Source: a virus (Duplodnaviria > Caudoviricetes). Taken from it: 63,546 bases of DNA. The translations under genes were made by a program, and so were the position numbers. Below are positions 568 through 57,690 of the stretch, in pieces. Below the pieces are notes generated by a model. It saw nothing but the letters and a program-made list of their open reading frames with translations. It was not told the origin of the DNA and did not search any database. The stretch covers positions 1-63,546 of the IMG/VR virus record IMGVR_UViG_3300020122_000568; one strand, given 5' to 3'. Every line of letters starts with the position of its first letter. Position 1 is the first letter of the stretch.

Positions 568-834
568 CGGGCGAGGAGACGCGCGTGGAGCGCCCGCTGC
601 AGCTGACGCCGCTGGTGCCCGAGAAGGAGCCGGCGACGCCCGCGTGGTGGCGATGGGTCGAGCAGGAGTTGGCGGCGCAGGGATACGGGGAGGAGGCGCG
701 CACATGCTGATCGCGGGTCCGTTACACGAAGTCTACTGGGGCATGTTCCGCGCTCGGTACGTCTCGCCGGTGCTGGCGCGAGTCGTGCGCTGGTCGTGGG
801 TCGCTGGGCTGTTCATCTGAGAGGGGGCCGCCAC

Positions 835-2076
835 ATGAAACGCATCGAATCACTGACGGAAGCGCAGGTTGCGCGACTCGACGAGTTCCGCGACAAGTGG
901 CTCGCCATCGGGTTGTCGACGGCGCCGGCCGATCGCGTGGAGGCCGAACGCGGCGTCGAGCTCGCATATCGCGCCGCCGGTCTCGAACCGCCGCGCATTC
1001 GCATCTGGCTCCGTTCCCCGCTCGAGGGAATTATTGGAGCGGCCTACCTCGCCGAAATTTCGCGGCGTATCAAAGAGGCTCCGAAGTCAGCACGAAAGGC
1101 CACGCCGCGAAATTTCGGCGAGCCGGTAAAGGCCAAAGTCAGGGACCAAGTCGGGGACCAAGTCAGGGACCAAGTCAGGGCCCAAGTCAGGGCCCAAGTC
1201 TGGGACCAAGTCGGGGCCCAAGTCAGGGCCCAAGTCGGGGACCAAGTCGGGGACCAAGTCGGGGACCAAGTCAGGGACCAAGTCAGGGCCCAAGTCGGGG
1301 ACCAAGTCGGGGCCCAAGTCGGGGACCAAGTCGGGGCCCAAGTCGGGGCCAAAGTCAGGGACCAAGTCGGGGACCAAGTCGGGGCCCAAGTCTGGGCCCA
1401 AGTCAGGGCCCAAGTCAGGGACCAAGTCAGGGCCCAAGTCAGGGCCCAAGTCTCGAATGCCTGCTTCGGACAGCACGAAGCAGGCTGGGCGAGTTTCTAT
1501 GATTTCTTCGGCAGCGCTTGCGGGCTCGCCGCCGTAGATCGACTCGCCGGACTCACGGCTATCACGCGCGCGGCGGGGTGGTGGTGGCCGTTCCGCGGCG
1601 CGGTCATCTTGACCGAACGACCATGTTTTATTGCGCGCGACGACCGCGGTCGACTGCACTCCGAGACTCGGCAGGCGATCGAATATCCCGACGGCTGGGG
1701 AATCCACGCGTGGCACGGGACGCGTGTGCCGGCGGAGTGGATCACGAATCGCGACAAGATCGACCCGTCGACGGCGCTGACGTGGGCCAATATCGAGCAG
1801 CGACGGGCGGCGGCCGAGATCATCGGGTGGAAGCGCGTCTTGGAGCAGTTGCCGTCGAAGGTCATCGACGCTGACAGTGACCCCGAGATCGGGACGCTCA
1901 TCGAAGTGAACCTTCCCGATGCTGGCCCCGCGAGGTTCCTTCAGGTGCGTTGCGGAACCGGCCGCACGTTCGTTCTTCCTGTGCCCCGAGAAATGCGCAC
2001 CGCCGTCGAGGCGAACGCGTGGACGTATCCGACGATGACACCGCAACGAATCAGAACATTGGAGGCTCGCACATGA
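835..2076 (+). CDS. DUF6745-like protein with central tetrapeptide repeat
   Basis: N-term WLAIGLSTAPADR, C-term GWWWPF..VILTERP..RLH..AIEYPDGWG..AWHG..NIEQRR motifs; ATG at 835. Confidence 0.8.
   Translation: MKRIESLTEAQVARLDEFRDKWLAIGLSTAPADRVEAERGVELAYRAAGLEPPRIRIWLRSPLEGIIGAAYLAEISRRIKEAPKSARKATPRNFGEPVKAKVRDQVGDQVRDQVRAQVRAQVWDQVGAQVRAQVGDQVGDQVGDQVRDQVRAQVGDQVGAQVGDQVGAQVGAKVRDQVGDQVGAQVWAQVRAQVRDQVRAQVRAQVSNACFGQHEAGWASFYDFFGSACGLAAVDRLAGLTAITRAAGWWWPFRGAVILTERPCFIARDDRGRLHSETRQAIEYPDGWGIHAWHGTRVPAEWITNRDKIDPSTALTWANIEQRRAAAEIIGWKRVLEQLPSKVIDADSDPEIGTLIEVNLPDAGPARFLQVRCGTGRTFVLPVPREMRTAVEANAWTYPTMTPQRIRTLEART
1141..1452 (+). repeat. 12-bp coding tandem repeat, 26 units of (A/G/T)GGG(A/C)CCAAGTC encoding [R/G/W][D/A]QV
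   Basis: Read directly from the sequence. Confidence 0.95.
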
Positions 2077-48890: not shown

Positions 48891-49166
48891 TTACCTTGGT
48901 GCAATAGGCCGTTTCCGAGGGATGCGATCGCCTGTTTCCTGTCGACGAGGACGACGACGACGCCCGCGACGAGTCACCCAATCGCGAATGTCATCTTCGT
49001 ACGACCACGCGAACCCGCCTGGGTAATAATGAATCGGGAGAGGATCAGGCTTCGCTGGATCCGATGCCCGACTGGCGGTACTACGAGCGTACGGTCTGCC
49101 GAGGAGTTGACCTATGTACCATGCGATCTCCTTGAGGCCCTCAAGGCGTCGGCGAGGCTGCTGCAT
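48891..49166 (-). CDS. Small HTH DNA-binding protein
   Basis: LEGLKEIAWYIG..RSTASR..P...W. Confidence 0.6.
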   Translation of the reverse strand: MQQPRRRLEGLKEIAWYIGQLLGRPYARSTASRASDPAKPDPLPIHYYPGGFAWSYEDDIRDWVTRRGRRRRPRRQETGDRIPRKRPIAPR

Positions 49167-49196
49167 TCGTCACCGCCTTGGTGACGATTATGCATT

Positions 49197-49237
49197 AGGT
49201 TGTATATGTTCGCGAGGTTACTAAGGTTCAAAAGGTT
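49197..49237. promoter_or_regulatory. Five A(G/T)GTT direct repeats with exact 9-bp period in a divergent promoter region
   Basis: Starts at 49197, 49206, 49215, 49224, 49233. Confidence 0.6.
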
Positions 49238-49261
49238 ACAGTCGCGCCGAAGGAGGAAACT

Positions 49262-49795
49262 ATGTCGCTTCGAAGCTCGACCGGGACTCAACTCGCGCGC
49301 GCCGAACTCTACGCATTCGACGACAAGGGCAACCGCATCGCCACCGCTGGCCGCGGCGCGAACGTCATGCCGGTCAAGGAGACGCGCACGTACGTCGAGC
49401 CGGCGACCGTCAGCGAGAGCCAAGACGAACGCCGCGCGCGCGAGGGCCGTCAGGCACGTATCCTCGCCTCGCTCACCGATGACGAGGCGACGGTGCTCCA
49501 CTATCAGGGCAAGCTCGTGTGCCGGATCCAGAAGCCTCGCGAGGTGGCCGGCGGCGACGTCGCGGAATATTTGAACGCGGGCTACGTGCTCAAGCCGGGG
49601 TCGGTGCGATTGCTCGAGCGCGATGGGTTGCCGCCGGTCGAAGTGGCGACCGTGATCGGCTTCGAAGAGGTGCAGGTCGAGCGGCTGAGCTACGACGAGA
49701 TCGCCGAGCACTTGGGCGTGAGCATCCACATGGTCAACAAGCTTGTGGTGTCGGCGAATAAGAAGTTGCGCGCGCTGCGATCGGTCATTTTTTGA
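49262..49795 (+). CDS. Protein with C-terminal sigma-70 region 4-like HTH
   Basis: RBS AGGAGG; LSYDEIAEHLGVSIHMVNKL..ANKKLR. Confidence 0.75.
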   Translation: MSLRSSTGTQLARAELYAFDDKGNRIATAGRGANVMPVKETRTYVEPATVSESQDERRAREGRQARILASLTDDEATVLHYQGKLVCRIQKPREVAGGDVAEYLNAGYVLKPGSVRLLERDGLPPVEVATVIGFEEVQVERLSYDEIAEHLGVSIHMVNKLVVSANKKLRALRSVIF

Positions 49796-50252
49796 TCGAG
49801 CCCAACTGCGGACGCGGCTGCGGAGACGGCACCCCCACTATCGACTTTCGTTCGCTGCGGAACTCTTCATAGGAGCGCAGTCGTCCTTCCAGAAATCGCT
49901 GGTCGTAGTCGGCTGCGGCGCGCTCGCGATCGCTGCCAAGACTGGCTCTGTCGACATGCTTGTTCGCGTGGTAGGCCCGCGCCTCCTGACGATGACCGCG
50001 TAACATGTGGTCATCTTCGATTTCGCGTTGCTCAACATCGGTCAGCAGGTGGATCACATTCAATCGACGTTTCGTGTGGATTCCTCTCCTGTAGAGATAT
50101 CGGCGCAAGCGAGGCTCGATCCTCTTCTTGTCGATCCCGGATGTCTCCACCAGCCATTCGTCACTGACGTCATCACCACGCTTCAATCGATCGACGTGCG
50201 GCTTCAGTCTCACCCATGCCGCTTCAATTTCGTATTTCGATAGAATCGCCAT
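49785..50252 (-). CDS. Hypothetical protein downstream of GGY-NN array B
   Basis: RBS GGAG; co-oriented with RAMP-like gene. Confidence 0.7.
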   Translation of the reverse strand: MAILSKYEIEAAWVRLKPHVDRLKRGDDVSDEWLVETSGIDKKRIEPRLRRYLYRRGIHTKRRLNVIHLLTDVEQREIEDDHMLRGHRQEARAYHANKHVDRASLGSDRERAAADYDQRFLEGRLRSYEEFRSERKSIVGVPSPQPRPQLGSIKK

Positions 50253-50280
50253 TGATTATCTCCATGTTTTTTTCCATCTC

Positions 50281-50395
50281 CCCCCATTGGGGGCCATGCC
50301 TTGCCATGCCACGCCTAGCCCCGCCTCGCCCGACCAGGCCTTGCCTGACCACGCCAAGCCGAGCCTTGCCCTGCCGAGCCCATCCAGACCTTGCC
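50281..50395 (-). ncRNA. GGY-NN pentamer array B (20 units) + terminal hairpin; putative guide RNA
   Basis: GGCAA GGTCT GGATG GGCTC ... GGCAT then GG CCCCC-AAT-GGGGG. Confidence 0.85.
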
Positions 50396-50399
50396 CGGA

Positions 50400-51038
50400 C
50401 TATTTCGTCCTCTTCACAGTCGCCGTAAACATTCCGTACATTCCCGGCTTCTTCGGCGACGATGGGCGCCAATCGCCGACGCCGGCCTTTCCCGCCCCGT
50501 ACCACAGCGTCTCAATGCGATCCTCTCCACTGAGCAGATCCTCATTGTCGGTCTCGAACATGGTCGTCGCCGACCAGTGATCAAACCGCGGACGTACGCG
50601 CGTATGAGACTTCCCATTGATGTTGCACGGCTTGACGAACAATGCGAATCCCAGCGCGCGCACTGCTTGGCAATGCTCCGCGAAGCCGCCGTCGATACGC
50701 TCGACGTCGGCGCGCGGAATGGTCTTGCCGTTCACGAACAGAGGTACGTAGAAGTCACTGAAGAACATCGACTGCGAAGCGGACTTCAATGTCTTCTTGT
50801 TTCCGATGCTCACGCCGCTGCCCGCCTTCAGCAGAGCAGCCAGAAAATTTTCTGCTGGGATGCAGACACACTCGTCGTTGACGTAGAGATACGACTTCCA
50901 CGTGTCAGCCGGGTGCCGGTCATCGCCGGCCTTTCCTCCCTTGCGTCCACGAGCTGCTATTGCGTCGCGCGCCTCGAGATTGTTGTGGTGCATGAGCAAT
51001 GGCGTCGTGCCTTCGATCGTGACTTCGAATCGCTCCAT
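50400..51038 (-). CDS. Solo RAMP/Cas7-like RNA-binding protein (Vipr-like)
   Basis: FEVTIEGTTPLLMH, IPAENFLAALLKAG, RVRPRF..W, Gly-rich loop GAGKAGVGDWRP..GMYGMF. Confidence 0.8.
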   Translation of the reverse strand: MERFEVTIEGTTPLLMHHNNLEARDAIAARGRKGGKAGDDRHPADTWKSYLYVNDECVCIPAENFLAALLKAGSGVSIGNKKTLKSASQSMFFSDFYVPLFVNGKTIPRADVERIDGGFAEHCQAVRALGFALFVKPCNINGKSHTRVRPRFDHWSATTMFETDNEDLLSGEDRIETLWYGAGKAGVGDWRPSSPKKPGMYGMFTATVKRTK

Positions 51039-51150
51039 CGTTTGCTTACCTCTCGCGATGTGCCTCTCTCGGCTCTCTCGGAGTATTCCGAACTGGCCGA
51101 ACTGAACACCATCGCGCGTCGGAATGGGTTCCGGCGCGCTGTGCTGTCAT

Positions 51151-51230
51151 GCTCCATTGGAGCCCTCGCCATGCCGCACCCCGCCCGGCCTTACCGCACC
51201 TCGCCTGGCCGCGCCCAGCCGAGCCCAGCC
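51151..51230 (-). ncRNA. GGY-NN pentamer array A (13 units) + terminal hairpin; putative guide RNA
   Basis: GGCTG GGCTC GGCTG GGCGC ... GGCGA then GG GCTCC-AAT-GGAGC. Confidence 0.85.
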
Positions 51231-51234
51231 GCAT

Positions 51235-53965: not shown

Positions 53966-54826
<861 letters not shown>

Positions 54827-56325: not shown

Positions 56326-57690
56326 TCACCGCTGCCATGACTGCTCCTGTTCCGTAGCGCTGAGGTCGACGAAGCGCCCAAATCGCGGTTGCCACCCGAG
56401 GCGCGTGGTCCCGATGGGTCCGTTTCGCTGCTTGGCGATGATGACTTCGCAGATGCCCTTGTCCTGCGTCTTCGGTTCGTAAACTTCGTCGCGGTACAAG
56501 AACGCGATGACATCGGCGTCCTGCTCGATTTGTCCGCTGTCACGCAGGTCGCTCAAGATGGGACGCTTGTTCGATCTCTCCTCGCACTTACGGTTCAACT
56601 GCGCCAACGCGACGACGGCTCCGTTGATCTCCTTCGCGAGCGCCTTGAGCCCGCGCGACACGGCGGCGATCTCCCGCTCGCGGTCAAGCTCGCCTCGGCG
56701 CGACTGCGCACTGACGAGCTGCAGGTAATCGACGATCACGACGCACGGACTCCCGGACGCTCCTTCGGTCAAGCGCCACCGACGAGCGCGCGAGCGGATG
56801 CCGATGATGTCAAGCGTTCCCTCGTCGTCGACCCACAGTGGGCGGCGCGCGAGAACATCGCCGGTGCGGCTGATCGCCTTCCAGTCGTCTCCGGTCAGGT
56901 GTCCAGAGCGCATGCTCTGCGCGTCGACGCGCCCCTCGCACGCGAGCATCCTCTCGACGAGAGACAGATTCGACATCTCCAGGCTGAATACGAGCCCCGG
57001 AAAGCCGCGCGCGGACTGCGCCACCGCCATATTGCCGGCGAAGGCGCTCTTGCCCATCGACGGCCTCGCCGCGATGATCCAAAGCTCTCCGGGGTGCAGC
57101 CCTGTCGTCGTGCGGTCGAGTTCGGAGAACGCCGTCGTGATTCCCAGCGCCGCGGGGTTGTGGCGGTTCTCGTATCGGCGCTCGATATCGCGAATGGACT
57201 CATTCAGCAGCGGATTGACATGCCGGGCCTGTTGCTTCACGACGTCGCCGCGCTGAAGGTCGAGTAGTGCCGCGTCCACCTGCGAGAAGAATTCGTCGTC
57301 GCCGGTGTCAGCGTCGTACGCGAGAACGCGCAACTCGTCCGTCAACTCGGCGTATCGGCGCCGGCGCGCCTTCGAGCGGACGATTCGCGCGTGGTAGGCG
57401 TGATTCTCGACGGTGACGACCTTGCACATCAGGTCGGTCAGGTATTCATCGCCGCCGGCGGCATTCAGGCGGTCGAAGGTTCCATCGCCTCGCATCCGAT
57501 TCGCGACGCTGACGGCGTCGATCGGCTGTGAGTCGCTATCGAGCGCCACGATCGCCTCGAAGATTACGCGCAGCGCCGGGTGGCAAAACTCCGGCGGCGT
57601 CACCTCAGCGATCACCTCGGGCAGAATGCGCGGGTGAACCAAGATGCCACCGACGAGTTGAGCCTCGGACTCAATAGCACTCGGCGTCAT
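56326..57690 (-). CDS. dnaB: Replicative DNA helicase DnaB
   Basis: AARPSMGKS, FSLEM, IVDYLQL, QLNR, DLRDSGQIEQDAD, KQRNGP. Confidence 0.96.
   Translation of the reverse strand: MTPSAIESEAQLVGGILVHPRILPEVIAEVTPPEFCHPALRVIFEAIVALDSDSQPIDAVSVANRMRGDGTFDRLNAAGGDEYLTDLMCKVVTVENHAYHARIVRSKARRRRYAELTDELRVLAYDADTGDDEFFSQVDAALLDLQRGDVVKQQARHVNPLLNESIRDIERRYENRHNPAALGITTAFSELDRTTTGLHPGELWIIAARPSMGKSAFAGNMAVAQSARGFPGLVFSLEMSNLSLVERMLACEGRVDAQSMRSGHLTGDDWKAISRTGDVLARRPLWVDDEGTLDIIGIRSRARRWRLTEGASGSPCVVIVDYLQLVSAQSRRGELDREREIAAVSRGLKALAKEINGAVVALAQLNRKCEERSNKRPILSDLRDSGQIEQDADVIAFLYRDEVYEPKTQDKGICEVIIAKQRNGPIGTTRLGWQPRFGRFVDLSATEQEQSWQR

Follow-up and report, generated by a model that had tools for sequence, protein, structure and literature searches.

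A probable VIPR guide array beside a predicted vipr gene in a soil phage

VIPR systems and the soil phage locus

VIPR is a phage-encoded, CRISPR-like system of RNA-guided DNA silencing based on a minimal RAMP protein, Vipr, and was first described in 2026 (bioRxiv 10.64898/2026.04.26.720920). As reported in that preprint, the guide RNAs (vrRNAs) consist of YNNGG repeats in which GGY is conserved and NN is hypervariable, followed by a structured 3' tail, and in the described layout one vrRNA lies upstream and the others downstream. One Vipr protomer is described as binding each repeat and sequestering its GGY (10.64898/2026.04.26.720920, 10.64898/2026.04.26.720927), while the NN pairs read dsDNA and pass over exactly one target base in each unit (10.64898/2026.04.26.720920). 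This rule was obtained by joining the NN pairs with 0-3 gap bases on both strands, from which a gap of exactly one emerged; according to the same preprint no PAM is required, either strand can be targeted and binding silences transcription (10.64898/2026.04.26.720920). Coding sequence belonging to rival phages and satellites makes up most of the natural targets given there, the skip falling on the wobble position, and seven VIPR types have been published (10.64898/2026.04.26.720920). The reference systems are those of Escherichia phage SUSP1 and of a Pseudomonas fulva prophage (Vipr, vrRNA and vap), with the structure PDB 36pp (10.64898/2026.04.26.720920, 10.64898/2026.04.26.720927). In the SUSP1 Vipr, the residues reported to contact GGY are H17, R138, D177, W178 and R179, and the pocket is said to exclude purines at the third GGY position (10.64898/2026.04.26.720927).

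The window analyzed here is the whole stretch of 63,546 nt, a complete record with 65% GC. Judged by its genes for an integrase, RecE/RecT-like proteins, a DnaB-like helicase, the small and large terminase subunits and repressor-like regulators, it is a temperate, tailed phage. A near relative was not found among 50,697 cultured phage records (megablast with 24.9 kb of the genome), and the large terminase displayed at most 37% identity to its cultured-phage relatives. The phage DNA was present in soil and rhizosphere metagenome runs. Array B, the repeat tract under study, was recovered letter for letter in contigs of four further soil-metagenome runs, which may share one sampling campaign, and therefore did not arise as an artefact of assembly in a single data set. 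The contigs of these four DNA runs were identical to the window over the covered parts, thus no guide variation was seen.

The locus is arranged on the minus strand in the order vrRNA-A, vipr, vrRNA-B and a gene of 155 aa, and the two arrays A and B fill both intergenic gaps flanking vipr. The features were as follows:

51164..51233, minus strand: repeat tract of the putative vrRNA-A, 14 YNNGG units upstream of vipr, parsed from the sequence
51151..51163, minus strand: predicted 3' tail hairpin of vrRNA-A, GCUCC-AAU-GGAGC, immediately 3' of the final unit
50400..51038, minus strand: vipr (P0002), predicted 212-aa minimal RAMP protein between the arrays
50294..50399, minus strand: repeat tract of the putative vrRNA-B, 20 in-phase YNNGG units (50294-50393) and an out-of-phase TCCGG at the 5' end
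50281..50293, minus strand: predicted 3' tail hairpin of vrRNA-B, CCCCC-AAU-GGGGG, immediately 3' of the final unit
49785..50252, minus strand: 155-aa gene (P0003) directly downstream of vrRNA-B, a candidate accessory (vap) gene by position only
56326-57690: DnaB helicase gene, marking the early/replication region in which array B sits

The vrRNA-B tract begins immediately after the vipr stop codon. Read on the plus strand, positions 50293-50397 are made up of 21 successive 5-nt units without an indel (17 GCCNN, 3 ACCNN and 1 TCCNN). On the minus strand, in the frame 50296-50395, they form 20 phase-locked GGY+NN units, the scaffold triplets being 16 GGC, 3 GGT and 1 GGA; the single GGA among the 20 counts against the VIPR reading. 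The NN series of array B is AA CT TG TC AG AA TC TT GT CA AA CT CG GA GG TA GT AT AA AT, with 26/40 A/T (35% GC), and this parse reproduced exactly the series and the A/T count given in the preliminary description. The NN series of array A, GC TG TC TG GC CA GA GC AA CG GG GC AT GA, has 64% GC.

Windows of 20 phased positions were scored for GCC over the whole 63,546-nt genome. Array B contained 16 GCC at the 20 positions, and the top 40 windows were all located at 50228-50348 or at 51118-51188, the latter corresponding to array A, which ranks second among the phased GCC regions of the genome. The complementary motif GGC reached a maximum of 5/20. Array B is far beyond chance.

The protein encoded between the arrays, P0002, has 82 homologues in a large protein collection, none of which belongs to a Pfam family. 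A profile of 43 homologues matched PDB 36pp (36pp_D), the 'SUSP1 Vipr protein', over the full length (1-215 vs 1-190, E 1.7e-23), and the single sequence gave a weak match to the same protein (E 0.094, residues 134-193). SUSP1 H17, R138, D177, W178 and R179 align to H17, R149, D189, W190 and R191 of P0002, respectively. The last four of these, as well as the G-loop motif GxGDWRP, are invariant in all 43 homologues. An AF2 model of the 212 aa had a pLDDT of 92.3, and Foldseek returned 47 PDB matches at E <= 0.001, the best at about 1e-5; all among the matches listed were CRISPR Csm or type VII complexes, with Csm and type VII Cas7 chains as the best matches. In a VIA-align comparison, 37 of the best 38 rows were CRISPR RAMPs, with Z up to 9.2. 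Judged by its profile match and aligned residues, P0002 is a Vipr-family RAMP protein that keeps the GGY-gripping residues of the solved SUSP1 complex, and according to the model its fold is that of a Cas7-type RAMP. The fold that characterizes a Vipr comprises an RRM core, a G-loop and a thumb and lacks the additional domains found in CRISPR RAMPs.

We therefore interpret array B, with a probability of about 0.9, as the guide portion of a soil-phage VIPR RNA (vrRNA). The locus is a further member of the system already described in 2026.

Some other features were observed around the locus. A DUF5131 protein (53966-54826 (-), Pfam E 1.2e-72, PHROG 2045) is encoded about 3 kb upstream in the same operon direction. 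A 177-aa ORF at 49262-49795 (+) is convergent with the locus and faces its end; it includes a helix-turn-helix resembling that of sigma-70 region 4 (Pfam E 3.7e-06). On the minus strand another possible ORF (49112-49729) overlaps this one, and the choice between them was made by GC3 alone. Third-position GC was 0.73 in vipr and 0.64 in the 155-aa gene compared with about 0.8-0.9 in most genes of the phage, and this low GC3 at 49785-51038 hints at acquisition of the VIPR locus from a less GC-rich source. A different repeat, with 26 units of 12 bp that each vary at two positions, is located at 1136-1452 of the window inside the ORF 796-2076 (+). The 426-aa product of this ORF contains it as a tetrapeptide repeat, QV[RGW][DA], and has a DUF6745 domain as its C-terminal half (Pfam E 1.5e-34).

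Target search and composition of the guides

By analogy with the two VIPR preprints, the arrays would be transcribed and cut into RNAs. Each repeat would be bound by one Vipr protomer, with GGY flipped out and the two N bases presented, and the resulting filament would pair these bases with dsDNA in the pattern NN-x-NN-x, skipping one base per unit, without a PAM and on either strand. The paired filament would then block transcription at the DNA target. For array B this corresponds to about 20 protomers and, under the one-skip rule, a predicted target of 59 bp with 65% A/T at the specified positions. Such a target would most likely belong to a competing phage or to another mobile element of the same host, as one of its genes or control regions. 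The proposal made from the sequence alone, that the NN pairs carry information on foreign DNA while the triplets serve as scaffold, thus fits the published mechanism, but the target itself was not found.

The own genome was searched at skips 0-3 with 100 controls of shuffled unit order. No self-target was found at skips 0-2, where the best matches were 21-22/40 for array B and 18-21/28 for array A, within or below the range of the shuffles; at skip 3 the top matches were the arrays themselves only. The absence of a self-match, which had been noted by eye, was thereby borne out at skips 0-2, and the preprint likewise reports the published systems as lacking a self-target (10.64898/2026.04.26.720920).

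Three sequence collections were searched under the one-skip rule only, using exact seeds without mismatch followed by full-length scoring, with the bar of 80% used in the VIPR preprint. In viral_contigs, the 8-unit seeds of array B matched 17 loci (units 13-20), 6 loci (units 7-14), 45 loci (units 1-8) and 22 loci (units 10-17), and those of array A matched 45 loci (units 7-14) and 22 loci (units 1-8). These 157 loci from six seeds are approximately the number expected by chance, and the best full-length scores were 26/40 for array B and 22/28 for array A, all below 80%. Units 11-20 and 1-10 of array B (exact, one skip) both gave 0 matches in genome_contigs, which contains 185,579 genomes with one per species, and units 11-20 gave two loci in metagenome_contigs. 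The better of these two, L287 at 29/40, was rejected as a chance match, being located in a sulfatase-like gene on a contig of 32% GC, where the skip falls on codon position 1. The search with gaps of 0-3 that had been proposed at the outset thus returned no target, neither from the own genome, where a gap of 3 recovered the arrays only, nor from the three collections at a gap of 1 with exact seeds. We do not read these absent matches as a refutation, because a seed with even one mismatch is missed and the sampling of soil phages is thin.

In an all-against-all comparison, 510 arrays were matched to 1.86 Mb of fetched loci, and the numbers of guides with a match of at least 80% were 50, 72, 50 and 59 at skips 0, 1, 2 and 4, respectively. 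The counts are similar and 1.86 Mb is too small, thus the comparison is no test of the skip rule.

The missing target bears on a second interpretation, in which array B is of the VIPR type and holds no working guide, being either a decayed or orphan array whose target is gone or a decoy soaking up the Vipr of a rival phage. We consider this unlikely. A target is absent from the own genome and, by exact seeds, from the three searched collections, and the array contains one GGA unit and one out-of-phase unit at its 5' end. However, GGY occupies 19 of the 20 scaffold positions with no break in phase and the tail hairpin is intact, while vipr is also intact with all checked contact residues kept; moreover, the collections were searched by exact seeds only, and soil viromes are poorly sampled.

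Under the preferred reading of array B as a working vrRNA, its composition may indicate the kind of DNA that would be targeted. The preliminary description had set the AT-rich NN series against the strongly GC-rich genome and had predicted a promoter-like target from it. The AT-richness is real (26/40), but it is less odd than it appears, since the mean NN GC of the 510 arrays was 48.5% compared with 61.3% for their loci. A low NN GC is expected if the base left out is in most cases the one at the wobble position, which is rich in GC. The step from AT-richness to a promoter was not supported, because VIPR targets as reported are mostly coding and the wobble skip alone lowers the GC of the NN pairs. 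Among 162 arrays from loci of 65-75% GC, 6.2% were as AT-rich as array B, while among 20-codon windows of the phage's own genes, considered at codon positions 1+2, the proportion was only 0.8%. Since AT-richness of this degree is rarer among the windows of own genes than among arrays, the target of array B is probably AT-richer than ordinary coding DNA of such a genome. By composition, this target could be a regulatory gene, a control region or an element of lower GC, and a promoter is not singled out.

Arrays, tails and neighboring genes in related loci

A total of 186 Vipr relatives in viral contigs were confirmed by tblastn, and the loci of 80 of them were fetched. In 77 of these 80 loci, GGY arrays of at least 7 units were located beside the gene on the same strand, and an array on the opposite strand was detected in none of the 80. 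The array lengths in the relatives ranged from 7 to 37 units. The converse set comprised 82 loci, of which 81 were selected only by the pattern (GCCNN)8GCC and one (L001, Donkeykong) by blastn. A match to the Vipr profile was found within about 2.5 kb of the array in 63 of the 82 loci, and several of the other 19 were cut by contig ends. A pattern of nine phased GCC was found in at least 137 stretches of viral contigs. The GCCNN repeat is a widespread phage feature.

When the region was compared with cultured phages by blastn, only the array itself matched, the match being 'gene 48' of Mycobacterium phage Donkeykong. This 'gene 48' is a GCCNN array of about 350 bp and about 68 units which is annotated as a CDS in GenBank. 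In the same locus (L001, NC_051648.1; 1681-2780), the adjacent hypothetical protein gp49 matched the Vipr profile with an hhalign probability of 98.9% (E 1e-17) and contains the motif GVGDWRPSAPK, and gp47 gave no match to the profile. 'Gene 48' is therefore probably a run of vrRNAs that was mis-annotated as a CDS, and this type of annotation error probably recurs in other actinophage records. As a cultured phage with a Vipr gene (gp49), Donkeykong would be a tractable laboratory system.

The predicted tails of arrays A and B have the same offset from the last unit, a 5-bp stem and an AAU loop, and the stems differ at several pairs with compensating changes. Among 238 arrays of the related loci, 56 were followed within 3-9 nt by a 5-bp hairpin, 26 of these with an AAT loop, 63 were joined to the following array by a YNNGGA[AT]C linker, and the remaining 119 displayed other tail forms, often with 4-bp stems. 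In an alignment of 24 sequences (the two window tails and 22 relatives), 5/5 stem pairs covaried and every cell paired; this covariation is circular for the 22 relatives, which were chosen for forming a hairpin, and non-circular for the two window tails. Rfam gave a chance-level match only (E 0.33). A promoter and terminator scan of the minus strand beside the arrays found no sigma-70-like promoter and nothing useful otherwise, and none of the 21 runs listed was an RNA run carrying the array stretch.

Head-to-tail chains of arrays of 9-23 units, joined by linkers of the YNNGGA[AT]C type, were observed in L182, L192, L199, L204, L205, L213, L215, L217 and other loci, with up to 14 arrays per related locus. 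These linker-chained arrays may represent the architecture that the VIPR preprint calls 'staggered'.

The fixed orientation and the tails also bear on a third interpretation, in which the repeat acts as DNA, in the form of protein-binding iterons, a replication origin or a recombination linker, and lies next to a RAMP gene by coincidence. This would have been a reasonable explanation of a strictly periodic intergenic repeat before the VIPR papers, and the array does sit in the early/replication region marked by the DnaB helicase gene (56326-57690). However, a duplex site needs no fixed orientation, and no array was found on the opposite strand in the 80 loci; a hairpin with compensatory changes following the arrays is a feature of RNA, and in the published system the vrRNA, an RNA of ~100 nt, is reported to co-purify with Vipr (10.64898/2026.04.26.720920). 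We regard a role of the repeat as DNA as very unlikely.

A protein-coding repeat, namely the 93-aa ORF at 50224-50505 (-) with a G-x-A-R-x pentapeptide repeat, is hardly credible in spite of its open frame and of the CDS annotation of the Donkeykong array (gene 48), because conservation follows a period of 5 nt and not the codon (three fixed and two free bases per unit in any frame), a stop in (GGCNN)n is possible only if NN is TA and open frames are therefore automatic, the ORF overlaps both neighboring genes, and related arrays are interrupted by 4- and 6-nt steps and linkers.

The 155-aa protein P0003 that follows array B had one homologue in 5.8 billion proteins (66% identity) and no family in Pfam, PHROG or PADLOC. 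In Atlas it fell into viral hypothetical clusters, with weak winged-helix look-alikes. No counterpart of P0003 was found in the 80 related loci. When 18 window proteins were compared with these 80 loci and with 523 neighboring ORFs by tblastn and phmmer, the matches were Vipr plus one recombinase, and no recognizable vap gene was found.

With array B read as a vrRNA, we suggest only tentatively, and with more doubt than confidence, that the soil-phage clade is a VIPR variant beyond the characterized type II systems. Such a variant would have a minimal handle, with a 5-bp stem and an AAU triloop replacing the pseudoknot, guides of at least 20 units (up to 37 units in relatives) and, as a new accessory protein, the orphan partner of 155 aa. 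The target of array B would then be a stretch of unusual AT-richness, such as a regulatory region or a low-GC mobile element, and not ordinary coding DNA of a 65% GC host. The skip rule in the clade might also differ if the handle or the protein diverges enough.

The present locus adds to the recently described family a soil-phage member with a long guide of 20 units and a simple hairpin handle. It also shows that the logic of a noncontiguous guide code can be worked out from nothing but the raw sequence.

Comparison with known systems

TRAP (trp RNA-binding attenuation protein) of Bacillus is an oligomer that reads (G/U)AG-NN repeats in RNA, with a triplet every ~5 nt. Its spacers carry no information, no DNA is targeted and the protein is unrelated to Vipr. 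A TRAP-like RNA-binding site was considered for array B and was superseded by the VIPR papers together with the Vipr match. An R-loop or G-quadruplex element, a Rho site, a primase or origin site and a recombination linker were dropped for the same two reasons.

Class 1 CRISPR backbones are built from Cas7-family RAMPs (Csm3, Cmr4, type VII Cas7) on crRNA, and according to its model P0002 shares their fold. As the VIPR preprints present it, the likeness extends to one protomer per RNA repeat step and to a thumb that breaks the guide-target duplex periodically. Unlike in class 1 CRISPR, neither a repeat-spacer array nor cas1/cas2 or another cas gene is present in the window: no CRISPR-type array was detected when all 63.5 kb of the genome were surveyed for tandem repeats and ORFs, and PHROG and Pfam scans (40 and 17 window proteins) detected no cas family. 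The guide is instead a 5-nt repeat that combines scaffold and code. VIPR displaces three guide bases and one target base per step, compared with one in six in class 1 CRISPR.

The closest likeness is to the VIPR references. The soil phage locus resembles them in its predicted minimal RAMP protein of phage origin, in the GGY-contact residues that are kept, in the YNNGG arrays on the same strand on both sides of the gene, in the structured 3' tails and in the lack of a self-target. Unlike in the SUSP1 and P. fulva clades, for which guides of 9-16 units are reported, the guides here have 14 and 20 units, and in place of the pseudoknot described for the SUSP1 clade, a 5-bp stem closed by an AAU loop is predicted as the tail (10.64898/2026.04.26.720920). 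The 155-aa neighbor matches no recognizable vap. As a single sequence P0002 differs enough from SUSP1 Vipr to match it weakly; its family profile aligns with that protein over the full length.
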